A DNA stretch of 32,000 nt from Sedimentisphaera cyanobacteriorum (GTDB lineage Bacteria > Planctomycetota > Phycisphaerae > Sedimentisphaerales > Sedimentisphaeraceae): NCBI RefSeq assembly GCF_001997385.1, contig NZ_CP019633.1, positions 1,950,001-1,982,000 of the forward strand. Direction: 5' to 3'. Of the stretch, positions 538 through 14,248 are shown in pieces. How positions within the stretch are numbered: position 1 is the stretch's first letter; every line of letters starts with the position of its first letter. The notes beneath the pieces are model-generated. The model searched no databases. It worked only from the letters and a program-made list of their open reading frames with translations, and was not told where the DNA came from. Made by a program: the position numbers and the translations under genes.

Positions 538-1986
538 TTAATACTTCGCCACAAACCCTTTGTCTGATTCGAGATTTACGAAGAAGTAGCGAAGGGCATC
601 GATGTAATGGTCGTATATCCCATCTTTTTCCGGAAGTTCATCGCCGGTGCATTTAGCGGGGTAATGATAGCTTTCCATCGCCTCAATAAGGTTTACGCAG
701 GAGCGGTCTATAAAGAGCCTTGGCCTTCCTGCTGCATTTCTAATATGCTGCCTTATCATCTCGAGTCCCGGGGCGATTCGGCTGGCCTTCCACCTGAGAT
801 TTATCCCTTGCTTGCGGAATTCGCTTACAACGCTTGTTCCGCTAATCTGAGATGTCTGGGAGCCTGCCGGGTCGCAGAATGTTCCCGCAAGGCTCGCTGT
901 TTTGGGCGTAAGCTTTCGAACATTTTCGCAGTTTACAGCAGCGGTTTTCTGCCTTGCCACATATTCTTTGATCACAAAAACATTCCCCGCGCTGTCCTGC
1001 TCTATCCAGAGGCATACAAACGGATTCACGAAGCCGAAATCTATAGAGCGAAAGAGCCTTCTCGCTGCGCTGAAATCCTGCCTGCATACATTCACGCTCC
1101 TCTCGAACGAGGGGAAAACGCACCTGCTTGCCGAAGGCTTTCTGCACAGCATCTCCGATTCCCAGCTGCTCCTGCTTGCCCTGTTCATCTGAGATACAGC
1201 ATCGTCTATGCGGTAGTAGCCTCCGGCATCTTTTGCAATGCCGCGGCAGTCTTCCCAGAGCGGGCAGCTTGAGCAGGTTCTCTCGGTGCATTTTTCGATT
1301 ACATCCCAGAGATTCCATCTAAATACGGGCATACAGGCTTTTTTTGCCGTGCTTACCGCCTCGGACATTATCCCGTACGGTTCGTGCATTGTGGATGCGG
1401 CCTCCATGGCAGACGTTATGCCATTGCCGGATTTTGTTATATACTGAGCAGCCTGATAAACCTCCGGATCGAAAAGTTCGATCTCATCGCAGCGGAGCTT
1501 ATGTATATGCCTTCCCCGCACGTTCCTTGAAGACTGAGTGAGCACTTCTACACTGCTTGAATTCTCAAGCCTGAGCGAGCTTTTGGTAATCTTTCCGCTG
1601 AGCATATCGGGGAATCCCTCTTCCATAAACCGGGCAGCATATTCATACATCCGCCTTGCCTGTTCCTGCGAGCCTGAGAGGATTTTGATGCTGCAGCCCG
1701 GGCGAAGCACGGCATCCAGCACAGTTAGCACTGCTCCGCAGAGAGTTTTTCCTCCGCCCCTGTTTGCCCACACCAGACAGTCGCCGTTTGGCCTTCCTTC
1801 AAGCTCGGTGGAGTATGCATGCCAGAGATAATCGAAGGGGCTTGCTGCACCCGAGAGGCTTTTATCAGGCAGGGATACCCCGAGAAAAGTTTTTATGTAG
1901 CCCTTGAGCTGTTTGCGGTTTTTTGGAGGCTCAGTTCTAAGCGCAGAGAGAACCGAGCTCAAATGGTTTTCGTTTTGAGTTTTCAT
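538..1986 (-). CDS. Phage terminase large subunit (TerL)
   Basis: The 482-aa ORF has a Walker A-like ANRGGGKT and a Walker B LRCDEIELFD. The C-terminal RNaseH-like nuclease part has acidic motifs SIDFGF, FCDPAG and DHYIDALRY. There is a Cys-rich insert CTERTCSSCPLWEDC. RBS GGAGAAGGA lies upstream of the ATG. Confidence 0.85.
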   Translation of the reverse strand: MKTQNENHLSSVLSALRTEPPKNRKQLKGYIKTFLGVSLPDKSLSGAASPFDYLWHAYSTELEGRPNGDCLVWANRGGGKTLCGAVLTVLDAVLRPGCSIKILSGSQEQARRMYEYAARFMEEGFPDMLSGKITKSSLRLENSSSVEVLTQSSRNVRGRHIHKLRCDEIELFDPEVYQAAQYITKSGNGITSAMEAASTMHEPYGIMSEAVSTAKKACMPVFRWNLWDVIEKCTERTCSSCPLWEDCRGIAKDAGGYYRIDDAVSQMNRASRSSWESEMLCRKPSASRCVFPSFERSVNVCRQDFSAARRLFRSIDFGFVNPFVCLWIEQDSAGNVFVIKEYVARQKTAAVNCENVRKLTPKTASLAGTFCDPAGSQTSQISGTSVVSEFRKQGINLRWKASRIAPGLEMIRQHIRNAAGRPRLFIDRSCVNLIEAMESYHYPAKCTGDELPEKDGIYDHYIDALRYFFVNLESDKGFVAKY

Positions 1987-2023
1987 TTTTCCTTCTCCTC
2001 AACATTTTTTCTATTCAGGGCAG

Positions 2024-2461
2024 CTAACTGCCCAGATTCTCTAACGCTTCGATGCGTTTGATATGCCTTCCGCCTTCAAATTCAGTGCTGAGCCATATAT
2101 CCACGATTTCATAAGCGGCCTCTATCGAGATCATTCTCTCACCTATAGCGAGCATATTTGCGTTGTTGTGCATACGGGAGAGCCTTGCGGTTCTGTTGTT
2201 CCAGCAGAGCGCGCAGCGGATTGCCCTGATCTTGTTGGCGGCTATAGCCTCGCCGTTGCCGCTGCCTCCAAGAACAATGCCTCTATCGCAAATTCCCTCC
2301 GAAACGGCTCTTGCTGCAGGGATTATGAAATCCGGATAACTGCAACACTGTTTAGTGTATGTACCGAAGTCTTTAACAGCCCAGCCGTTTTCACTGAGAT
2401 ACTCTTTGATCTTTTCTTTGTACTTAAAACCTGCGTGGTCTGATGCTAATGCTATTTTCAT
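2024..2461 (-). CDS. rpiB: Ribose-5-phosphate isomerase B (RpiB/LacA/LacB family)
   Basis: The 145-aa ORF starts MKIALASDHAGFKYKEKI and contains GSGNGEAIAANK and a C-terminal GGRHIKRI. These are typical RpiB motifs and length. Confidence 0.9.
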   Translation of the reverse strand: MKIALASDHAGFKYKEKIKEYLSENGWAVKDFGTYTKQCCSYPDFIIPAARAVSEGICDRGIVLGGSGNGEAIAANKIRAIRCALCWNNRTARLSRMHNNANMLAIGERMISIEAAYEIVDIWLSTEFEGGRHIKRIEALENLGS

Positions 2462-2543
2462 AATTCTAACTCATTTTGATGATAACCATTTTACCGTTCT
2501 GAAAAGCGGCGATTATATCGAAAACAAATTTTATTTCACCTTC

Positions 2544-2918
2544 TTATTCCGCCAAAATTTCAAGCAGTTTTGCCTTTTTCTCCTCGCTCAGGGTTGGGCC
2601 AGAAGATTCCTGTCTGCATTGCAGGAGCTCTTTCCTAAGCTGCATAATGTCGATGCAGGCTTTTCTTGCCGTTTCTTCTTTGTCGCAGCATGCAAGGCCG
2701 GCAAGCTTCTCCGCCGCAGTTAGGCCTGCCTTCGCAAGAACGACTTGGGTAAGCAGGTTCACGGTTTCAATCTTATTCAGCATCTCTTCACGGCAGTTCT
2801 CATTTTTCAGACGCTTGTCGAGGGCCTTTATGCTGAGCTGGTTTTTCTCGAAAGCCTCTTCAAGGCTGATTGCAGGTTCGAAAATCTCGGCAATAAAGGT
2901 TTCCATTTTTTTGCTCAT
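2544..2918 (-). CDS. Hypothetical helical protein, possible terminase small subunit (Terminase_2/P27-like pattern)
   Basis: The 124-aa ORF has an ATGA start/stop overlap with the upstream gene. The N-terminal FIAEIF..ISLEEAFEKNQLSIKALDKRLKNENCREEM resembles the HTH region of small terminases (F..eYl..n...Aa..aGys...a...rLlkn..v). Position upstream of TerL is consistent. The call rests on pattern memory only. Confidence 0.4.
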   Translation of the reverse strand: MSKKMETFIAEIFEPAISLEEAFEKNQLSIKALDKRLKNENCREEMLNKIETVNLLTQVVLAKAGLTAAEKLAGLACCDKEETARKACIDIMQLRKELLQCRQESSGPTLSEEKKAKLLEILAE

Positions 2919-3637
2919 TTTTCCGCCTCTCTGATAAGTTTTGGGTTTTTGATAAAAAAGCAGTATTCGGGTTTAAGCTCGAGCTTCTCAACTGCCTTTT
3001 CGAGAATCTCTCCTTCAGCCCTTCGGGATAGAGAGCCGTAGCTCTTGAGAAGATTTACTGCTGCTCTTTGAATCTTTTCTTTCTGTGCGTATGAGGCATT
3101 CTCGAGAGCTTTCTTTCTTTGGGCTTTTGATGTCCGGGCGAGTGGAATCCTGTTTTGAGTGAGCAGTGCTTTCAAACGCATCTTTTTCTCGCTCTCAGCA
3201 GGCCTGCACCTCTTGAAACCCGCAGAGGCAAACAGATTCCCCAGCCTTGCAGATGCGCTCAGCGCCTCAACGCAGCCTGCACTGCAGAATTGTACGGTTT
3301 TGATCAGAAATTTTCTTCCGATGCCCAGCCCGCGGTATTCCGGGAGTATTACAATTCTCGAGACAATCCTGAAATGAGCGTTTACCGCTCTCAGCCTTTG
3401 GCCGCCGGCCTGCGGGAAGCGTTTTAAGAGTTTACCGAAAACAGCGTTCCTGCCGGCACAGTTTGCAGGCGGGTAGGAGAATGTGATAATTCCGGCCTTC
3501 TCGCCTGCAATCCCTCGAAGCAGAAAAGCCTCGCACACCAGCCCGGGACGTGAGGCGCAGTAGTGCCATCTTTCGAAACCGTCATACTCCTCTGCGCCGC
3601 AGCGACGGATAACCAGCTCTGGCAGTTCAATAAGCAT
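2915..3637 (-). CDS. GNAT-fold (acyl-CoA N-acyltransferase-like) protein with an N-terminal ERWHY motif and a basic helical C-terminal extension
   Basis: The 240-aa ORF contains RIVILPEYRGLGIGRKFL, which carries the canonical GNAT motif A (R-x-x-G-x-G). An upstream FERWHYCASRPG...AGIITFSYPP resembles Mom-like/phage GNATs. Strong RBS AAGGAGG. It overlaps the ATPase stop by 11 nt. Confidence 0.6.
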   Translation of the reverse strand: MLIELPELVIRRCGAEEYDGFERWHYCASRPGLVCEAFLLRGIAGEKAGIITFSYPPANCAGRNAVFGKLLKRFPQAGGQRLRAVNAHFRIVSRIVILPEYRGLGIGRKFLIKTVQFCSAGCVEALSASARLGNLFASAGFKRCRPAESEKKMRLKALLTQNRIPLARTSKAQRKKALENASYAQKEKIQRAAVNLLKSYGSLSRRAEGEILEKAVEKLELKPEYCFFIKNPKLIREAEK

Positions 3638-4280
3638 TTGCCCCTCCTTTCCGTCTCACTTCCGGCCTGCCTGTTCGGCTGAGCGTAATTACCACTTCGG
3701 GAATAAGGAATTTTTCAAGCTCTTGACGAGTTGTGCACAGTATAAAGCTCTTTCGGGTTCTCAGGGCTTCAAGACGCAGCTTTGCTGAGAGAAGTTTGGC
3801 CTGAGTGCAGTCGAGACTGCTGCAGAATTCATCGCAGATAATCGTTTGCTCATTCCTGCTAAGCGCAACGGCAAGGCGAAAACGGAACTTCTCCCCAACG
3901 CTGAGAGCGCTGAAAGGCTTAATCATGCTCCAAGCATTTGCAAGGCCTGTTTCTCTAAGTCTTTTCATGCCGCCGGTAAGCGTGGGGAAGCAGTCTATAA
4001 TGCTGCATTGCCTGCTGAATTCGAGGCCATCTAAATCCGTAAAGCTCTCCTCCGGCAGCGAGCTTTTGATGCTCGAAAGCAGGGTGGATTTCCCCGCTCC
4101 GCTCGGCCCTTTAATCAGCACTATCTCCGCCTCAGAGAAGCTGAAATCAACCTTCAGGCGAAACTTCTCGCTCAAGCGGCTTTCGCTTATCCCGAAGGTT
4201 TGCATTATTATCCCGCTTCTCCTGCTGAGTGAGTATCTTCTGGGGATAGACGAATCAATTTGAATCTTTTTTCGTTTCAC
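3627..4280 (-). CDS. Soluble ABC-type ATPase with no transmembrane partner
   Basis: The 217-aa ORF has Walker A GPSGAGKSTLL, a degenerate signature LSVGEKFRFRLAVAL, and Walker B/D-loop IICDEFCSSLD. The GTG start overlaps the TGA of the upstream HTH gene (GTGA). Confidence 0.75.
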   Translation of the reverse strand: MKRKKIQIDSSIPRRYSLSRRSGIIMQTFGISESRLSEKFRLKVDFSFSEAEIVLIKGPSGAGKSTLLSSIKSSLPEESFTDLDGLEFSRQCSIIDCFPTLTGGMKRLRETGLANAWSMIKPFSALSVGEKFRFRLAVALSRNEQTIICDEFCSSLDCTQAKLLSAKLRLEALRTRKSFILCTTRQELEKFLIPEVVITLSRTGRPEVRRKGGANAY

Positions 4281-4666
4281 CGTTCAGCCCCCGCTTTCTT
4301 CTTTTTGTAAATTTCAGCGAGCCTGATATGCTTTCTAACTCTGTATTCTGAGCATCTGCGATTTTTGCTTATCTCGCGAATGCTCATCCCGCGAAGGAAA
4401 TAATCTCTTGCGATCGCCCCGCCCAGCGTGCTGCGGGGGTAGCAGGCGTTGTAGTTTCTGAGCCGTTTGAGCAGTTTTCTGATTCTGCTCGAGATGGTCT
4501 GGCGGCATTTTCTGCGAGATTTTGCCAGATTTGTGATGCTTCTGCCCTCAAGGAAGTACTGCTCTATAAGCTTTCGGTCTTTTCGTTTGAGTCCGCGGGC
4601 AGCTCTGAGCATATCTTCCACTTTCTCACGCATGGCTTGGCGGTGGTCGTAAAGATTTTCATCCAT
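4277..4666 (-). CDS. Small DNA-binding protein with two tandem sigma-70 region 4/LuxR-like HTH repeats
   Basis: The 129-aa ORF has an internal duplication: LIEQYFLEGRSITNLAKSRRKCRQTISSRIRKLL and IARDYFLRGMSIREISKNRRCSEYRVRKHIRLAEIY. RBS GGAGGAG. It is the first gene of the minus-strand operon. Confidence 0.7.
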   Translation of the reverse strand: MDENLYDHRQAMREKVEDMLRAARGLKRKDRKLIEQYFLEGRSITNLAKSRRKCRQTISSRIRKLLKRLRNYNACYPRSTLGGAIARDYFLRGMSIREISKNRRCSEYRVRKHIRLAEIYKKKKAGAER

Positions 4667-4720
4667 TTTTCTCTCTCCTCCGAAAAATTAACATTTATTT
4701 TTACCTCACCCCGTATGTTA

Positions 4721-4766
4721 TTAAGCAAATGCTTAACTTTAAGAAAAAAGTTAGATATTTGCTTAA
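4721..4766. promoter_or_regulatory. Candidate operator: perfect palindrome TTAAGCA-AA-TGCTTAA plus a third TGCTTAA half-site
   Basis: TTAAGCAAATGCTTAA at 4721-4736 is a perfect 7-bp inverted repeat. ATTTGCTTAA recurs at 4757-4766. It lies about 55-100 bp upstream of the HTH gene start, in the AT-rich divergent intergenic region. Confidence 0.3.
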
Positions 4767-4937
4767 TATTATTTCTGCATTAACGCAGTTAAAACTGAAA
4801 TCAGTTACAATATTGTATTTATATGCAAATATTAAAACAAATTTGTAGCATACTTTTTTGGTGAAAATTTTTATTTTATTTAGTAAGTACTTTTATTGCA
4901 GGTGTTTGCAGCGTATTTTGCTTTTTTCGTTTTGTTT

Positions 4938-4952
4938 TGGCACATCAATTGT
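4938..4952 (+). promoter_or_regulatory. Sigma-54 (-24/-12)-like promoter upstream of amtB-glnK
   Basis: TGGCACatcaaTTGT matches TGGCAC-N5-TTGC with correct spacing and one mismatch (final C->T). It lies about 74 nt upstream of the amtB ATG. Nitrogen-regulated amtB-glnK operons are often RpoN dependent. Confidence 0.4.
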
Positions 4953-5025
4953 AACAGCAGGTTTGAAAAGTTAAAAAAGCTCGCTTCCAATTTGTATTTT
5001 TGTCCCTTTTTGAAAGGAGAGTTCT

Positions 5026-6905: not shown

Positions 6906-8261
6906 ATGCAGAACATTATATCATTAGAACTGATAAGTGCCACATCAGAAAATGGATTTTCTTTAGATGAATTGGTTTTCAGGACCAAAGAGTTATTTGA
7001 AACTGAGGCTATGGCAGGTTTTGTAAGCCTGATTCTTCAGTTGATTGATGAGCGAATATGTATGAACATTGTTCAAGGTAAATCGGATAATACCGGCCAA
7101 TCATGCTGCTGCAATGAGCGGTTTGAATATCATGACAGGTCTCTTCGCCAGTTCAGGACTTCTGTCGGCACAGTCAAGATTAGCTGGCGTCGCTTAAAGT
7201 GCGTTAAATGCGGCAAGACAATAACTCCTTTGAGAGATTTTTTAGGCCTTGCACCCTACCAGTCAAAGACATTGGAGTTGGAAAAGCTGGTTACAGAAAT
7301 TGTAAGCGAACAAAGTTATCGCCGAAGCAGCACTCATCTTGAATCTATCGGCAGCATACCTGTTCCAAAGAGCACTGCCCATCGCTGGGTTGTACAGACC
7401 GACTGCGATCAGATTGATACCGGCACAGATACATTCAGTCTTCTTTTTGCTGACGGCACCGGCTTTAAGCGTCGGCCCGATAAGGACAAACGCATAAGTA
7501 ATCGCGGTGAGCTCAGAGTTGCCTTAGGAGTCACCAGAAGTAGTTCTGTGGTGCCTTTAGGGGCATTCAGCGGTAAAAGCTGGGACGAGATATCCTCGCT
7601 GGTCAAGGGCGAACGTAAGAACAAAGAGCTTGTTGCCGATATGCTTGTAAGCGAGGGCGAAACAGGTCTGGTTAAGAGTCTGGCCAAACTTTGCAATGAT
7701 AGCCAAAGAAGCCATTGGCACCTGGTTCGGGATCTGAATTATACGATGTGGAAGGATGATGCCGGCAAACTTGAACGTAAGCAAAAGCAGAAAGAATTGA
7801 ATGCCGTAATTGGTATTGAAATTCCCGAGGAAGATTTTGAAAAGGTCTGTGATGATGACAAGAAAGATTTGCAAGATGCTGTCAATAGTGCCGAAAGTGA
7901 TCTTCATAAGCTGATAGGCAAACTGCTGGAGAAGGGATATAAAATAGCAGCCGATTACCTGAACCGTTCAGCTAAAAATATGTTCAGCTATGCTCGCCGC
8001 TGGCTGGAGACAGGTATTGTAACTCCGCGGGTTTCCAGCATGATAGAACGGATGATGCGAGAGCTTGGTCGACGCCTTAAACGCATCGCATTTGGCTGGA
8101 GCGAAGAAGGAGCGGCAAAGATGGCCAGAATTATCATTAAAAGATTTACTTCAGAAAATCAATGGGAAAAATACTGGCACGAAAAACTGAGGTTATTGGA
8201 CAATGTAATGCTTGCTCTAAAGACTATAAAAGTACAGAACCCACAAACTTTGGGACGTTAA
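6906..8261 (+). CDS. IS transposase (DDE type, zinc-ribbon N-terminal region)
   Basis: The 451-aa ORF has a Cys cluster CCCNERF...LKCVKCGKT followed by LLFADGTGFKRR (candidate first catalytic Asp). The stop codon lies at the very end of the right IR (8259-8261). Family assignment is from memory of UPF0236/ISKra4-like proteins and is not verified. Confidence 0.75.
   Translation: MQNIISLELISATSENGFSLDELVFRTKELFETEAMAGFVSLILQLIDERICMNIVQGKSDNTGQSCCCNERFEYHDRSLRQFRTSVGTVKISWRRLKCVKCGKTITPLRDFLGLAPYQSKTLELEKLVTEIVSEQSYRRSSTHLESIGSIPVPKSTAHRWVVQTDCDQIDTGTDTFSLLFADGTGFKRRPDKDKRISNRGELRVALGVTRSSSVVPLGAFSGKSWDEISSLVKGERKNKELVADMLVSEGETGLVKSLAKLCNDSQRSHWHLVRDLNYTMWKDDAGKLERKQKQKELNAVIGIEIPEEDFEKVCDDDKKDLQDAVNSAESDLHKLIGKLLEKGYKIAADYLNRSAKNMFSYARRWLETGIVTPRVSSMIERMMRELGRRLKRIAFGWSEEGAAKMARIIIKRFTSENQWEKYWHEKLRLLDNVMLALKTIKVQNPQTLGR
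8241..8260. repeat. IS right terminal inverted repeat
   Basis: CCACAAACTTTGGGACGTTA is the exact reverse complement of 6811-6830. Confidence 0.9.
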
Positions 8262-8391
8262 TAATTTTTTTGTTAGATTTCTGCTTTCCTGTTAAAACTC
8301 GTGATTAAAGGGCTTGGGGCAGATGAATTGTTTTTCGGGGCGTTTTATGAGCATATACAGGCGGGGTGCGAGAATCTCCGCGCATAAAAAA

Positions 8392-8477
<86 letters not shown>

Positions 8478-8563
8478 AAAAGAGAATAGGGAATTTTAAT
8501 GTTTTAGCTGCTTATATCAAGAATATTTGCTGAAAAAATTCAATTCTTTTTGATTTTTTCGCT

Positions 8564-9691: not shown

Positions 9692-10273
9692 TCAGCCGGC
9701 CTCGTCTTTCACCTGCCGCACGATCTGTTTTGTGGATTTGCTTTGCCCTACCTGGGCCTCGCTGAACGGTATTTTCGTATGCGGCTGGTTTTTCTTCATC
9801 ACCTCATTTCCTTTCACGATTTCCTCAAGCGCCTTGAGTTTCTTGCGAACTACAGAAGCCGCAGCGGCAGCCTTTGCAGCACCTGCCCCGCCGAAAATCC
9901 CGAAAAGAGCTATAACAATGTTAACCAGCGGATCGAAGAGGCTGTAGCCTGCGGTTCCGGCGGATGCCTGCAAACCAGCCTCCTCTGCTATCTTGCCGGC
10001 CATATTCTTTTTCAGTGAATCATAGTTTGGGGCATTTGCCGGCTGCTTTGGCTTTCCCATATATTCAGCCACAGCGCTGTGCTGCTTTGCTGCAAGCCCA
10101 GCAAGGGCCTTGATTCTCTCACTGCCTTCAGCCTCCGCCTGTTTTTCAGCAAGACCGATTGTCCGGCCGAGCAGATGGGCGTTTTGCTTCTGCACCTCGC
10201 CCGGGGCAAGCCTGAAAGCCCCGCACCCGCCTGCAAACAGGGCAAGCAGGATAATACAAATACAATTTTTCAT
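9692..10273 (-). CDS. Putative lipoprotein with an additional internal/C-proximal TM helix (spanin-like topology)
   Basis: The 193-aa ORF has an N-terminal MKNCICIILLALFAGGC, read as a signal peptide plus a lipobox-like AGGC. A second hydrophobic segment is LVNIVIALFGIFGGAGAAKAAAAA. Its start overlaps the upstream stop (ATGA). Confidence 0.55.
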   Translation of the reverse strand: MKNCICIILLALFAGGCGAFRLAPGEVQKQNAHLLGRTIGLAEKQAEAEGSERIKALAGLAAKQHSAVAEYMGKPKQPANAPNYDSLKKNMAGKIAEEAGLQASAGTAGYSLFDPLVNIVIALFGIFGGAGAAKAAAAASVVRKKLKALEEIVKGNEVMKKNQPHTKIPFSEAQVGQSKSTKQIVRQVKDEAG

Positions 10274-10533
10274 TTCCTCATCTCCTTCTGCATCTCTATC
10301 TGATTCTCTAAAACAGCAATTTCTTTTCCCTGCTCGGCCTGCCTTTTGCTCAAAACATCGAATTTGCCTGCCGAACTCTGCTGCTGGAGCTTTATCATCT
10401 CAACATCTTTCTGCAAAGAAGTGATTCTGGTTTGCAGGTCGCTCCAGCTGCCGATTATAAGCCCTCCGATAACAATAAGCTGGCAGGCCGTACGCACTGC
10501 CGAAAATACACTTGCCATAGACATAATCCTCAC
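10270..10533 (-). CDS. Small type-II membrane protein with a coiled-coil ectodomain (i-spanin/Rz-like topology)
   Basis: The 87-aa ORF has an N-terminal TM segment ACQLIVIGGLIIGSW followed by heptad-rich LQTRITSLQKDVEMIKLQQQ...IAVLENQIEMQKEMRK. The GTG start overlaps the stop of the upstream gene. An alternative ATG lies 9 nt downstream. Confidence 0.5.
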   Translation of the reverse strand: MRIMSMASVFSAVRTACQLIVIGGLIIGSWSDLQTRITSLQKDVEMIKLQQQSSAGKFDVLSKRQAEQGKEIAVLENQIEMQKEMRK

Positions 10534-11186
10534 CCCCTTTCCAGCTCGCCGCAGGCGAAGCAGTATTTCCGCTGCCTGCCTTCGGCATTCCTCATTTCAA
10601 CTATAAGAGCCTCTTTGCTCCTCTCGAACAGCTCTTCATACATCTCCCGCTTATCTGAGAGCAGAGCCTCATCCGCATCGGGATTGCCGCATTGAGCGCT
10701 GAGCATAAGCTGGGCGAGAGCTCCGGCGGCCGCGCAGTTTGCTGTGAGCCTGCTGTCGAGAATATCCTCCGCGCCGAACTCGGCATCGCTTACAGCAGGC
10801 CTTATACCCATCAGCGAGCAGAGCTCCAGAGAAACCGCCTCAATCACCGCGCTGAAGCTTGCAATCAGCAGATTCAGAGAGCCTATGCTGAACAGTTCTC
10901 CCGCCTGAAGTCCCTGTGCTGCGGGCGGGGCGATTGTGAGCTGGTTAGATGCATCACAGCTCAAAACGCTGAAATAGCCTTCAAATCCGCTTTCCGGCTC
11001 ATTCACGTAAACTGCGAAACCTTCCTGCACGCCTGCGGCAATGAAATCCACGCCGCCGCAAGTTAGCGAGCTGCCGGATATGCTCGCCCCGCCTCCGCGT
11101 ACAACGATAAACTGCTCGAGTCCTTCTGCCTTGAATATCCTGCTCTCAAAAGCTAAAAGGTCGCTGTCTTTGCAAAGCATTGTCAT
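10530..11186 (-). CDS. Hypothetical phage head-associated protein (position suggests a head-completion/adaptor role)
   Basis: The 218-aa ORF lies directly downstream of the capsid gene, with its own RBS (AAAGGA). I recognise no motif. The functional call is positional only. Confidence 0.5.
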   Translation of the reverse strand: MTMLCKDSDLLAFESRIFKAEGLEQFIVVRGGGASISGSSLTCGGVDFIAAGVQEGFAVYVNEPESGFEGYFSVLSCDASNQLTIAPPAAQGLQAGELFSIGSLNLLIASFSAVIEAVSLELCSLMGIRPAVSDAEFGAEDILDSRLTANCAAAGALAQLMLSAQCGNPDADEALLSDKREMYEELFERSKEALIVEMRNAEGRQRKYCFACGELERG

Positions 11187-11203
11187 TTTGTCTGTCCTTT
11201 CTC

Positions 11204-11237
11204 AAAAAGCCGCCTCGAGGTTTTGCCCCGAAGCGGC
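11204..11237 (-). terminator. Imperfect (probably leaky) terminator between the capsid gene and downstream genes
   Basis: The minus strand reads GCCGCTTCG...CGAGGCGGC, a 9-bp stem with one mismatch, followed by TTTTT. Placement after a major capsid gene is common in phages. Confidence 0.35.
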
Positions 11238-11247
11238 CGGTTAATTT

Positions 11248-12396
11248 TTATACAAGCCCGGTTATGATTCCGTGTGCCTGCTGGTTCTTGAGCTCGAGGG
11301 TGTATTCCCCTATAAGCTCGCCTCGTTCATAATCCCCACTGGATGCAAGCGGCTTGAAGTGCATACTTCTGCCCGTTAGAGGCATCACGCTTACCCGCGA
11401 GGAATCAAGCAGGAGGATTGTACCGCTGGGGACCCATCTGGAGAGAATTACCCTGCACACGCCGAAATCGCTTTCGTACATCTGAACCCCGCTGCGGACT
11501 CTGGTGTCTTCAGGGCCGTACCAGCGCGAGCCTTCGAGGAAGGAGTTTATCCTTCGCTTCTGAGCCCCGCCGGCAACGATCATATCAACATTCCCGCAGC
11601 TTTTCTCCCAAATCTGCCTCAGTGCCCAGTTGAGCATATTCTCTGTTAGCACATCTCCATCCGGAACGTCCCCTGAGCCCGCCTGGAAGATGTTTGTCTG
11701 AATGTGGCGGATTATTCCGCGCATCGTCCTTGTTTGCGAAGCGGTTCCTGCCGGGGAAGACTGCGCCATAGCACCGTTTATAACGGTATTCTCCAAATCC
11801 CTGAGCAGTTCACGCAGACGCATCTGCTTTTGATAGTCCATCTCTTCGGCGATACCTATGTGGTCTGCTGCCATATTAGACCCGCTCACCTCAACACCTG
11901 CGGTGAAGATTTGAGTCCAGTTGCCCTGTCTTGCCCTGGCGGTAAAGCGGCTTTCGGGAAAGTCTTCGCCTTCCACTGCCGAAGGGCCGATGATATTGAT
12001 CCTCTGGCCGTCTTCTATAGGCTCGGCGGATGTTCCGCCGTAGCCTCGGGTAACGTTGAGCGTGCTGCCAGTTTTGCCGATAACAAGCATTACCTCAGAA
12101 GAACCTTCAGGCTGGATCTGATCGTTTATGCGAAATTTGCTTATATCGGCCACATCAAATTCAGGACAGCTTCCGGGCATGGTAATATCCTGATCGTTTA
12201 TCACATCGCTGTTTGCAAGCAGGCTGTCTTCAAGCCATTCGTGATATGTACTGCGTGCTTCTCTCTGCGGGTCTCCGATTTCGCTTAGAAGAGGTGTTTC
12301 ATAAGGGGAAACAATCCCAATAACATCAGACACGTCTTCGGCTATTTCCGGCAGCTCCGCTCCAGCTGTAAAAGTTGCTTTTCCTGTAAAACTCAT
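11248..12396 (-). CDS. Major capsid protein, HK97 fold, DUF5309/SU10-like family
   Basis: The 382-aa ORF has an N-terminal ...AEDVSDVIGIVSPYETPLLSEIG....ARSTYHEWLEDSL.... This matches the family hallmark (eDLsD.I..IsP.dTPf.s.ig.....t.hEW..DsL). RBS AAGGAG. A scaffold gene lies immediately upstream. Confidence 0.8.
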   Translation of the reverse strand: MSFTGKATFTAGAELPEIAEDVSDVIGIVSPYETPLLSEIGDPQREARSTYHEWLEDSLLANSDVINDQDITMPGSCPEFDVADISKFRINDQIQPEGSSEVMLVIGKTGSTLNVTRGYGGTSAEPIEDGQRINIIGPSAVEGEDFPESRFTARARQGNWTQIFTAGVEVSGSNMAADHIGIAEEMDYQKQMRLRELLRDLENTVINGAMAQSSPAGTASQTRTMRGIIRHIQTNIFQAGSGDVPDGDVLTENMLNWALRQIWEKSCGNVDMIVAGGAQKRRINSFLEGSRWYGPEDTRVRSGVQMYESDFGVCRVILSRWVPSGTILLLDSSRVSVMPLTGRSMHFKPLASSGDYERGELIGEYTLELKNQQAHGIITGLV

Positions 12397-12412
12397 AATT
12401 TACTCCTTCATA

Positions 12413-12814
12413 TTAATAATTTGTGTTTTCAGTTTTTTCCCGGCGGACTCTCATATATTCGCTAACCTCTGCGGGTCTGCCGGTCTGAGCTGCTTTTCGG
12501 GCAGCTCCCTCAAGTTGGTTCTCGGTTTGCTCGGCTGCCTGAGCGATATTGCTGCGAAGCTCAGCAGGCCTGCTTCGGAACAGATAGGCCTTTTTCTCCT
12601 TGAGCCCGCTTACAAGCTCCTCTGGCTTCTTTTCGGGATTCTGTTTCTGCTTCTCTCTGCAAAGGGCCAAGCCTGCATCCAGATCGATAATCCCGCTTTC
12701 AGCGAGGGATTTGGCGGCTTCTTTTTCGAACTTAAGCCGCTCATTTTCAGCCTTGAGCTCTTCAGCGGGCAAGCTGCCGCCTTCAGGCGGAATGTTCTGA
12801 TTTTTCTTTTCCAT
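12413..12814 (-). CDS. Putative phage scaffolding protein
   Basis: The 133-aa ORF is acidic/basic, helical and coiled-coil (ELKAENERLKFEKEAAKSLAE...). It sits between the portal and capsid genes, and no prohead protease is present. RBS AAGGAG. Confidence 0.6.
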   Translation of the reverse strand: MEKKNQNIPPEGGSLPAEELKAENERLKFEKEAAKSLAESGIIDLDAGLALCREKQKQNPEKKPEELVSGLKEKKAYLFRSRPAELRSNIAQAAEQTENQLEGAARKAAQTGRPAEVSEYMRVRREKTENTNY

Positions 12815-12862
12815 GATAAATCTCCTTCTAAACTTAAATTAATATATTTCGAGGCCTTCGAT

Positions 12863-14248
12863 TCAGCCTGTTTCTTCTTTCGGATAAGCCCCAAATTCGC
12901 TGAAGACCTCCTCCTCCGGAAGCCCTGCCTCTTTTTTGAGAATAGCTTCATTGAGCTTATCTGTAGTGTTTTCGGGCAGTGGATCGGCAAACACGACCTC
13001 CACTTTCCTTTCTTCCCGACTCGTCTTAAAAATCCCCGCAGAATCTAACGCAAGCAGAAGCTTTCGGCAGAGCTGCCTTATTCCGTCTCCGTAAGCAGCC
13101 TTTCTGCGTTCGTTTTTGCTGAGGATCCCAATAAGCGTCATTTTGAGTGCAACTGCGCTGGAGAGATTGCCGATTTTTCCTCGCAATACCCCGGCAGCCA
13201 GCGGGGTTACTCCGCTTATCTTGTCCATCGCTGCACGTATCTGGTCTATATGGCTCTCCTCTCCCGGGCATGCGCTGTCTCCGCCGAACTGCTCAATGCT
13301 TGCGTCCTGATTCCATGTGTACCAGATTCGCCCAGGTACCACCTCTTTTGCCCCCGGGTCTTCAAGGCCTTTAGCCAGATAGAGCTTGAAAGACTGCATC
13401 GTTACGCGGAAAGCCCTGTCGCTAAGGCGGGTGTTCAGCTCGTCCTGAAGGGGTATCAGCGGGGCAACATCGCTCGCCCCTTCGTAGCTCTGCGGACGGC
13501 TTATATTCTGTATGTGAACTACTGGCAGCTCAGGTATCCGGCAGGGCAGCTCGCTTACCAGCCGGCCGTCGTGAAACCGCTGGAAAAGCTCAGGGCTGAA
13601 AAGCTCTGTTACCTGAATCTGTTTGCGGCTAAGCCCGCCTATGCCGGAATCTCCTGCCTGATTTATCTCCATTCGGAAATTCTGCAGATAACAGTTGATT
13701 CGGCCTGCATCACCTTCCTCAAGGACGGGAAGAGCCCTCTCAGCAGGTACAAGATCCAGCTTCACGTCCCTCGCTTCGGCATTTTCGCTGAAAAGCCCTT
13801 CAATGCGCAGAAGGATATCAACAAAGCCGTACACGCTGCCGAGAAGGGCTAGGCTCATAAAGAATTCACTGCCTCCGTTTGCCTCAAAAACTTCATTCAA
13901 AAGCGATTCAATCTTTCGAGCCTTGTCTCTGGTTTTCGAAAGGCTTTTGATTCGAATCTGCCGGCCGAAGAGAAAATCGTTCATCGAATTTATCCGCCAG
14001 CCGATATCGTTCTCGATTACAACTTCCTTGCGGCCTATCCCCTTCTCTGCGCTGCCGCGGATTCGTTCAGGCAGGCCTTGTATTTGTGCCTGCTGCATCT
14101 GGCCGGCCGAGCAGTTGTATCTGCAGTTGCTGTAATATTCGTAGAGCTTGCGGAATTCTCTCGCCCTTGCCGGCTGGTATTTCTCTATCAGCCAGCGGAC
14201 AAAACCTTCATCCAGCCTGAAGCCGAGCTTTGAAAAATCAAATTCCAT
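12863..14248 (-). CDS. Phage portal protein (SPP1 gp6-like pattern)
   Basis: The 461-aa ORF has an N-terminal ...FRKLYEYYSN... (the l..YY.g motif of portal N-termini). Size and position upstream of scaffold and capsid fit. RBS GGAGAAGGA. Confidence 0.7.
   Translation of the reverse strand: MEFDFSKLGFRLDEGFVRWLIEKYQPARAREFRKLYEYYSNCRYNCSAGQMQQAQIQGLPERIRGSAEKGIGRKEVVIENDIGWRINSMNDFLFGRQIRIKSLSKTRDKARKIESLLNEVFEANGGSEFFMSLALLGSVYGFVDILLRIEGLFSENAEARDVKLDLVPAERALPVLEEGDAGRINCYLQNFRMEINQAGDSGIGGLSRKQIQVTELFSPELFQRFHDGRLVSELPCRIPELPVVHIQNISRPQSYEGASDVAPLIPLQDELNTRLSDRAFRVTMQSFKLYLAKGLEDPGAKEVVPGRIWYTWNQDASIEQFGGDSACPGEESHIDQIRAAMDKISGVTPLAAGVLRGKIGNLSSAVALKMTLIGILSKNERRKAAYGDGIRQLCRKLLLALDSAGIFKTSREERKVEVVFADPLPENTTDKLNEAILKKEAGLPEEEVFSEFGAYPKEETG

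Follow-up and report, generated by a model that had tools for sequence, protein, structure and literature searches.

A 32,000-nt stretch of Sedimentisphaera cyanobacteriorum (Planctomycetota) DNA (contig NZ_CP019633.1, positions 1,950,001 to 1,982,000; below, the window, to whose positions all coordinates refer unless another locus is named) contains a phage-type packaging operon headed by genes for a double helix-turn-helix (HTH) protein, a soluble ABC ATPase and a GNAT-fold protein. The ATPase and the GNAT protein are predicted to be the two halves of one COG2401/'MK0520'-type enzyme in split form, and ABC-GNAT, as judged from gene neighbourhoods, repeatedly accompanies the large terminase in phages and domesticated elements. 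The packaging operon and a nearby head-gene cluster are, on comparative evidence, a phage-derived particle gene set that is vertically inherited and selectively maintained in Phycisphaerae-type Planctomycetota. That much, namely a COG2401-type enzyme at the front of a packaging operon in a phage-derived gene set, is very probably correct. The whole explanation, in which the enzyme would also carry out ATP-gated acyl transfer at packaging, has a probability of roughly 45%.

A predicted split ABC-GNAT enzyme in the packaging operon

The packaging operon (538-4666) consists of six co-directional minus-strand genes, listed here in the order of transcription:

4277-4666, minus strand: double-HTH protein, 129 aa, first gene of the operon; matches Sigma70_r4 (two stretches), Phage_antitermQ and TIGR02937
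3627-4280, minus strand: soluble minimal ABC ATPase, 217 aa; matches ABC_tran (2.1e-11) and phrog_11143 (1.2e-21)
2915-3637, minus strand: predicted GNAT-fold acyltransferase, 240 aa; matches phrog_886 (2e-9) and phrog_11143 (4.1e-6); AlphaFold2 model
2544-2918, minus strand: member of a predicted small terminase (TerS) family, 124 aa; BLAST clustering with a 53-locus family
2024-2461, minus strand: rpiB (ribose-5-phosphate isomerase B); matches LacAB_rpiB (2e-55)
538-1986, minus strand: large terminase (TerL), 482 aa, T4-like Terminase_6 type; matches Terminase_6C/6N and five TerL PHROGs

The initial annotation of this DNA had described three overlapping genes at the head of a packaging operon, and both points stand. 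Specifically, the open reading frames (ORFs) and all three junctions were re-read in the sequence: GTGA at 4277-4280 combines the HTH stop with the ATPase start (4-nt overlap), the 3' end of the ATPase gene overlaps the GNAT start by 11 nt (3627-3637) with GGAGG preceding the GNAT ATG, and ATGA at 2915-2918 combines the GNAT stop with the TerS start (4-nt overlap). The TerS-family gene comes next and the large terminase gene follows further on.

The ATPase contains the Walker A motif GPSGAGKS, the signature LSVGE and the Walker B motif IICDEF, all three as initially annotated, and they are invariant or nearly so across 70 family members. The family keeps Walker A, LSxG[QE], the Walker B DE and the D-loop. 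At the H-loop, 61 of the 70 homologues have His, but both Sedimentisphaera species have Arg (residue 185). Neither a permease gene nor a gene for a substrate-binding protein accompanies the ATPase in the window or in the 80 related loci described below, and the earlier description of a soluble ABC-type protein lacking a permease partner agrees with the ABC_tran match and with the adjacent genes. A transporter or housekeeping ATPase was rejected, as a permease is absent and the NCBIfam scores lie far below every cutoff.

The GNAT protein is identical in sequence to locus tag L21SP3_01578. Its Pfam GNAT matches all fall under the gathering scores (24.2 versus 27, 20.4 versus 23.6, and 17.6 versus 20.7). 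An alignment of 94 homologues was used for conservation analysis, for an AlphaFold2 model and for a comparison with phage Mu Mom. The model has a pLDDT (predicted local distance difference test) score of 90 and contains a GNAT core, residues 1-148, and a helical C-terminal domain. Using this model, we obtained 24 GNAT matches in the PDB with Foldseek (E ≤ 1e-3). Because a confident model matches solved GNAT structures, the GNAT fold of the 240-aa protein is confirmed at the level of the predicted structure despite the sub-threshold Pfam scores. The Foldseek matches are all generic, comprising arylalkylamine and agmatine N-acetyltransferases, YhbS, SpeG and RimI, with NAT10 at rank 49.

Six residues are invariant in the 94 homologues: H25, Y26, R63, R94, R102 and E124. 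H25-Y26 is the HY of the 'ERWHY' sequence, and RGLGIG, conserved in the same homologues, is GNAT motif A, in which R102 is one of the invariant residues and G105 is nearly invariant (at least 90%). The fold model, motif A and the conservation of H25-Y26 thus bear out the initial assignment of a GNAT with an HY motif. The GNAT profile found no close relative among solved structures, and no characterised metabolic GNAT family was matched in Pfam, NCBIfam or structure-profile searches. The protein is predicted to be an acyl-CoA-dependent acyltransferase.

Both proteins align to one PHROG 11143 model of 357 positions, the ATPase at 10-184 and the GNAT protein at 204-284, and phages therefore hold fused and split versions of one two-domain protein. 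PHROG 886 matches most of the GNAT protein. The features of the COG2401/MK0520 family found here are the ABC core, the HY motif, R-x-x-G-x-G, the ABC-then-GNAT order and the profile matches. The homologue in phage Cyrano is annotated 'MK0520 protein, ABC-type ATPase fused to a predicted acetyltransferase domain', the name given to COG2401. The initial annotation had seen no match to a system that it could name; the pair does have a catalogued identity, split COG2401/'MK0520' (PHROG 11143/886), though an uncharacterised one.

A role in translation was considered, in which an ABC-F-like ATPase and a RimI-like or tRNA-acetylating GNAT would serve host takeover. The best NCBIfam and PDB sequence matches of the ATPase are indeed ABC-F proteins (ribosomal protection ABC-F, 5e-12; ExpZ, 7.6e-10), and RimI is among the structural matches of the GNAT protein. 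However, the ABC-F matches cover generic ABC motifs only, the ATPase is a single 217-aa cassette and not a tandem ABC-F architecture, and its genomic neighbourhood ties it to the terminase rather than to early genes or genes of host takeover. We regard this role as very improbable.

Linkage of ABC-GNAT to the large terminase

An exhaustive search with the GNAT profile returned 1189 representative proteins, 519 of them at E ≤ 1e-10. Fused-length forms (at least 390 aa) account for 46 of the top 150 relatives, and ABC_tran lies N-terminal to the GNAT domain in eight of ten long forms examined. One fused protein (P0041, 847 aa) carries a LAGLIDADG intein within the ABC domain. Among annotated phages, tblastn found the ATPase in 58 records and the GNAT protein in 7.

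Five phages of different hosts have the enzyme in this neighbourhood. In phages Cyrano, RHph_X66 and nickie, the genes follow in the order helicase (opposite strand), ParB, ParB, ABC, GNAT, small gene, DNA-binding protein, TerL and portal. In Gordonia phage Jace, ParB is accompanied by a 364-aa fused ABC-GNAT protein; in streptococcal prophage 315.4, TerL lies downstream of ParB, ABC and a short GNAT-like segment. In the last two (loci L003 7146-7523 and L096 6107-6532), an ASCH-domain gene is found two genes downstream of the ABC gene in prophage 315.4, and a gene annotated as aspartate decarboxylase follows it directly in Jace.

The same linkage is found for a fused subfamily (P0034 and relatives) that has at least 545 relatives in metagenome contigs, some of these contigs longer than 500 kb. 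TerL (Terminase_6N) adjoins the fused gene in 45 of 81 metagenome loci, usually directly upstream. The fused cassette also occurs in 63 IMG/VR viral contigs, with TerL adjoining in 39; no viral contig turned up when IMG/VR was scanned with the GNAT subfamily of the planctomycetes. In a further locus (L098), flanked by host genes, capsid and portal genes are divergent from ABC-GNAT, three small genes and TerL, and the capsid and portal families differ from those of the window. The small proteins of the fused-enzyme cassettes have no homology to the planctomycete TerS, HTH or ParB proteins. The planctomycete TerL profile matches the TerL proteins of RHph_X66, nickie and the fused-subfamily elements. 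Taken together, the phage, metagenome, IMG/VR and L098 contexts identify the large terminase as the constant partner of ABC-GNAT. A neighbourhood check had been proposed at the outset, and its outcome is that the ATPase and the GNAT protein co-occur wherever the flanking sequence suffices, often fused, and that they travel with terminases and not with defence islands.

The initial annotation had also raised the idea of a defence pair, with PARIS and Septu as examples. The region upstream of terS in phages is a hotspot for anti-restriction genes, and ABC-GNAT might be a defence or anti-defence moron that merely occupies this variable region. PADLOC gave a weak mad3 match of the ATPase (1.9e-13), limited to the C-terminal ABC part, and matches to DndD, PtuA and AriA at the level of the P-loop and signature only. 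These matches and the hotspot itself favour a moron. Against it, PADLOC has no match for the GNAT protein, and neither PARIS, Septu, Dnd/Pbe nor MADS gave a full-length match of both proteins. Moreover, the pair is under purifying selection in vertically inherited chromosomal clusters of at least 80 species, it keeps a fixed place with respect to TerL in three unrelated lineages, and no defence-island neighbours were seen in the loci examined. The named defence systems are accordingly dropped, and a moron of this kind is improbable.

The phage-derived gene set in Planctomycetota

A lineage scan with one GNAT subfamily and one genome per species found 114 genomes with a relative, of which 80 loci were kept. 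All 80 belong to Planctomycetota, with the labels Phycisphaerae, Sedimentisphaerales, Phycisphaerales, 'Pirellulales' or plain Planctomycetota (the labels of metagenome-assembled genomes were accepted as they stood, and ORFs in the related loci were called crudely). By tblastn and ORF clustering, the related loci have a constant order: HTH, ABC, GNAT, a ParB_N protein, a small protein, sometimes rpiB, and TerL. Matches by tblastn were found for the ParB-like protein in 75 of the 80 loci, the ABC ATPase in 72, the HTH protein in 63, the small protein in 58 and TerL in 39, counts that are limited by contig ends. Specifically, the eight loci with no ABC match have at most 4.2 kb of sequence upstream of the GNAT gene, and insertions between ABC and GNAT reach 4.3 kb elsewhere.

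The same six-gene packaging operon is present in the sister species S. salicampi, between amtB-glnB and a sulfatase gene, and a third, metagenomic contig keeps the HTH, ABC, GNAT and 124-aa genes. Because the order recurs in the sister species, in the third contig and in 80 other genomes, the HTH-ABC-GNAT arrangement is not due to chance.

The 124-aa gene of the window clusters by BLAST with the 53-locus family, and the window copy alone matches no profile. Of 36 family members, 34 match PHROG 2538 'terminase small subunit' (best 1.7e-10). The protein is thus a predicted small terminase, assigned at the family level and by its position before TerL. The ParB-like gene that follows the GNAT gene in the related loci is absent from the window and was lost in Sedimentisphaera; its product has an NGHHR motif and matches phage ParB-like and ParB-methyltransferase families. 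The gene rpiB lies between TerS and TerL in 16 loci by ORF clustering (L011, L009 and L050 are examples) and in 12 of 80 by tblastn. The packaging clusters elsewhere contain variable insertions, with HNH-AP2 homing endonuclease, DUF1376 and HTH_36 genes separating ParB from TerS and a DUF488 gene separating ABC from GNAT (loci L027 10242-11021, L023 4492-5352, L016 11341-11817 and L030 7074-7703).

The window contains a second phage-like cluster (9692-14248) about 5 kb away from the packaging operon and on the same strand:

12863-14248, minus strand: portal; matches SPP1_portal (5e-17) and phrog_64
12413-12814, minus strand: scaffold-like protein, 133 aa, between the portal and capsid genes; its L242 homologue matches Phage_scaffold PF06810
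11248-12396, minus strand: major capsid protein of SU10/DUF5309 type; matches SU10_MCP (1.6e-86)
10530-11186, minus strand: conserved head-cluster protein, 218 aa, kept after the capsid gene in related loci
10270-10533, minus strand: i-spanin-like protein, 87 aa, with a coiled coil and a transmembrane segment at its N-terminus; homologues end the cluster in L243 and S. salicampi
9692-10273, minus strand: predicted lipoprotein, 193 aa, lipobox-like N-terminus, last gene of the head cluster; homologues in L242, L243 and L094

The capsid protein is 61-69% identical to its best 120 matches, which are 382-392 aa long, and 4564 proteins match at E ≤ 1e-10. The best 120 are mostly unnamed metagenome proteins, and the named ones come from Phycisphaerae or other Planctomycetes. 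The 87-aa gene overlaps the 193-aa lipoprotein gene in a layout that resembles an i-spanin/o-spanin pair, and the pair is kept in other Phycisphaerae. In 13 loci, a portal-scaffold-capsid-218-aa cluster lies upstream of the packaging genes on the opposite strand, often behind a PfkB sugar kinase gene. The kinase gene is often located between the HTH and portal genes, so that with rpiB two genes of pentose metabolism are embedded in the phage-derived set.

Other Phycisphaerae have about six extra genes between the 218-aa and 84-aa genes, including one for a beta-helix protein (L242 11917-16470; L243 11913-18412). These six tail-like genes have no homologue in the Sedimentisphaera head cluster or anywhere in the window, and no tail or delivery gene of any kind was found in the window, the part of the genome that was searched. 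The Sedimentisphaera copy is a reduced variant: it has no ParB, its H-loop carries Arg, and no tail-like genes are present at the locus.

Comparison of the two Sedimentisphaera species points to selective maintenance. The eleven phage-like genes compared have identical lengths and ratios of nonsynonymous to synonymous substitution rates (dN/dS) of 0.08-0.17, with 0.09 for TerL; their dS values are near or somewhat above those of flanking host genes. The cluster from portal to lipoprotein lies 690 kb from the packaging operon in S. salicampi and about 670 kb from it in another genome, compared with 5 kb in the window, and rearrangement has therefore occurred. Just upstream of its portal gene, S. 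salicampi has an HTH_17 gene, two small genes and a primase/AAA_25 gene (L093 3960-7060) that are absent from the window, a stretch that may be a separate mobile element. Across the related loci, GNAT and TerL diverge in step with the neighbouring RpiB and PfkB: their pairwise identities correlate (Spearman 0.91-0.93) and are similar in absolute level.

Between the two clusters of the window are an FHA-domain gene, an insertion sequence (IS)-like transposase gene (DUF6431/UPF0236, 6906-8261), a tRNA-Leu gene (8391-8478), glnB and amtB. A prophage was rejected: neither an integrase nor flanking direct or attachment (att) repeats nor a tRNA at the borders of the phage-like clusters was found, and the set co-diverges with host genes. 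The gene set is GTA-like (gene transfer agent-like) rather than a prophage because it is chromosomally fixed and vertically inherited. The loss of ParB and the six tail-like genes relative to other Phycisphaerae, and the IS element and host genes that separate the clusters, could instead suggest that the genes are inert remains of a prophage in decay, or that an ordinary transporter ATPase lies next to a metabolic acetyltransferase. This is the least probable alternative, given the low dN/dS and identical ORF lengths in two species, the co-divergence with housekeeping genes, the absence of a permease, an integrase and att repeats, and the failure of any characterised metabolic GNAT family to match.

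The first gene of the operon may control it. The HTH protein matches Sigma70_r4 in two stretches (24.8 bits, gathering cutoff 24.1) and Phage_antitermQ (33.6, cutoff 26), the latter with just 35 of 118 profile positions aligned, and NCBIfam gives sigma70-ECF region-4 matches, including TIGR02937. The dN/dS of its gene is 0.14 with respect to S. salicampi. From the domain type and the first-gene position of its homologue in 63 of the 80 related loci, the HTH protein is plausibly an operon regulator or activator. The region upstream of its gene is listed here:

4667-5025, unstranded: intergenic region upstream of the operon; contains blocks conserved with S. salicampi and a palindrome

The palindrome, TTAAGCATTTGCTTAA, is perfect, lies at 4721-4736, about 55 nt 5' of the HTH start codon, and is nearly conserved in S. 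salicampi. It could be an operator.

Possible role at packaging and relation to known systems

In the proposed mechanism, the HTH protein would turn the operon on. The ABC protein, dimerised on ATP, would act as a nucleotide-gated clamp or adaptor and would place the acyl-CoA-dependent GNAT on the DNA-terminase initiation complex. In most relatives the NGHHR-motif ParB/Srx-type protein, whose gene Sedimentisphaera has lost, would assist. The GNAT would then acylate its substrate.

We tentatively favour as acceptor the DNA awaiting packaging, or a nucleotide moiety of that DNA, because the partners are DNA-associated, several arginines are invariant, and there are three published precedents. 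Mom is a GNAT that modifies double-stranded DNA (PMC13219725); a DNA-modifying dioxygenase requires a phage ParB-like protein, and such genes co-occur with terminases (PMC13229309); and fusions of a ParB fold with an acetyltransferase exist (PMC12704722). The terminase or the portal protein comes next as acceptor, though we consider it rather unlikely.

A related alternative leaves the DNA unmodified. ABC-GNAT would act on one of the packaging-machine proteins (TerS, TerL, portal or capsid) by acetylating or chaperoning it, for example in an ATP-gated assembly or regulatory step. The nearest structures, which include protein N-terminal acetyltransferases (RimI) and amine acetyltransferases, are in keeping with such a target, as are the strict retention of the pair with TerL in domesticated elements, where anti-restriction is not needed, and the fact that the associated TerL proteins are largely one related clade. 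However, several invariant arginines in and around the acceptor side (R63, R90 and R94) fit an anionic acceptor more readily than a basic lysine peptide, a DNA-associated ParB/Srx protein is the partner usually found, and the capsid and portal families vary among the lineages that have ABC-GNAT. A protein target of this kind is unlikely, and it is nevertheless the strongest of the alternatives considered.

Several observations weigh against ATP-gated acyl transfer at packaging as explained here. By Foldseek, the structures closest to the GNAT protein are generic small-molecule and protein N-acetyltransferases, and the ABC-GNAT family is catalogued but uncharacterised. Sequence comparison of the region upstream of the HTH operon with that upstream of the portal operon found no common operator; the two Sedimentisphaera species share conserved blocks within each region, but no block is common to both regions. 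The regulatory role of the HTH protein is thus unsupported on this point. The Sedimentisphaera copy may be atypical because its H-loop His is changed to Arg and its ParB partner is lost. Particle function in S. cyanobacteriorum is uncertain because the six tail-like genes are missing from the head cluster. In addition, every domesticated copy retains the pair, which would not be expected of a DNA mark that served anti-restriction alone.

The mechanism can be extended to the whole class. Phycisphaerae would then have a class-wide, vertically inherited GTA-like viriform whose packaging operon, as in many phages, would depend on an enzymatic step not recognised before, in which an ATP-gated ABC-GNAT acyltransferase, usually with ParB/Srx, chemically marks either the DNA or the terminase complex at packaging initiation; we consider this extension doubtful. 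If ATP-gated acyl transfer at packaging is correct, a widespread, catalogued but unstudied enzyme (1189 representatives, many of them fused) would become a defined accessory of the phage DNA-packaging module, and ATP-dependent acylation at packaging would be a testable hypothesis. Pseudomonas phage nickie, Escherichia phage Cyrano, Rhizobium phages and streptococcal prophages are tractable models. Our literature search, which was incomplete, found no paper on the ABC-GNAT family, its terminase linkage or a GTA-like element of Planctomycetota.

Among known systems, the closest is COG2401/'MK0520' (PHROG 11143/886) itself, with the same two domains in the same order, the HY motif, motif A and direct hidden Markov model matches; the difference is that the enzyme in the window is split into two overlapping genes. 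TmcA/NAT10, which acetylates RNA cytidine, likewise couples a P-loop NTPase to a GNAT, and NAT10 is among the Foldseek matches listed above. However, its NTPase is of helicase type and not ABC, and it has no sequence relationship to the window GNAT.

Capsid-forming phage-inducible chromosomal islands (cf-PICIs) resemble the S. cyanobacteriorum window in having head and packaging genes without tail genes. They are mobile islands with integrase and replication genes, whereas the set in the window has neither and co-diverges with the host.

Phage Mu Mom, a DNA adenine modifier that depends on Gly-tRNA (PMC13219725), is a phage protein of GNAT fold, and its late-acting DNA modification is a possible analogue. 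The initial annotation had gone further and likened the GNAT protein to Mom, a relationship that we rejected: in hhalign, Mom against the 94-sequence GNAT profile gave a probability of 0.2% and an E value of 0.26. Moreover, Mom has no ATPase partner and no terminase linkage. The ParB-dependent DNA-modifying enzymes (PMC13229309, PMC12704722) are similar in that a ParB/Srx-fold protein adjoins ABC-GNAT in 75 of 80 loci and in five phages. They differ in that the ParB of ABC-GNAT is of NGHHR type and absent from the window, and in that the published enzymes are dioxygenases or other GNATs.

With respect to GTAs, the set described here differs in belonging to another phylum, in its SU10-type capsid and T4-like TerL, and in having ABC-GNAT (plus ParB) in the packaging operon; no tail genes are present in the window. 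If the gene set is what it appears to be, Phycisphaerae-type Planctomycetota would be added to the small number of lineages in which a phage particle machine is known to have been domesticated, and would offer a new setting in which to ask why and how bacteria retain such machines and which parts of a packaging module are indispensable. The likeness to GTAs such as RcGTA is that head and packaging genes are phage-derived, chromosomally fixed, vertically inherited and under purifying selection (PMC5026251, PMC9638019); GTA genes are also split over distant loci, as the two clusters are in S. salicampi and in one other genome, though not in the window. By domain type and position, the small sigma-like/Q-like HTH gene that heads the operon may likewise correspond to the GTA activators GafA and GafYZ.

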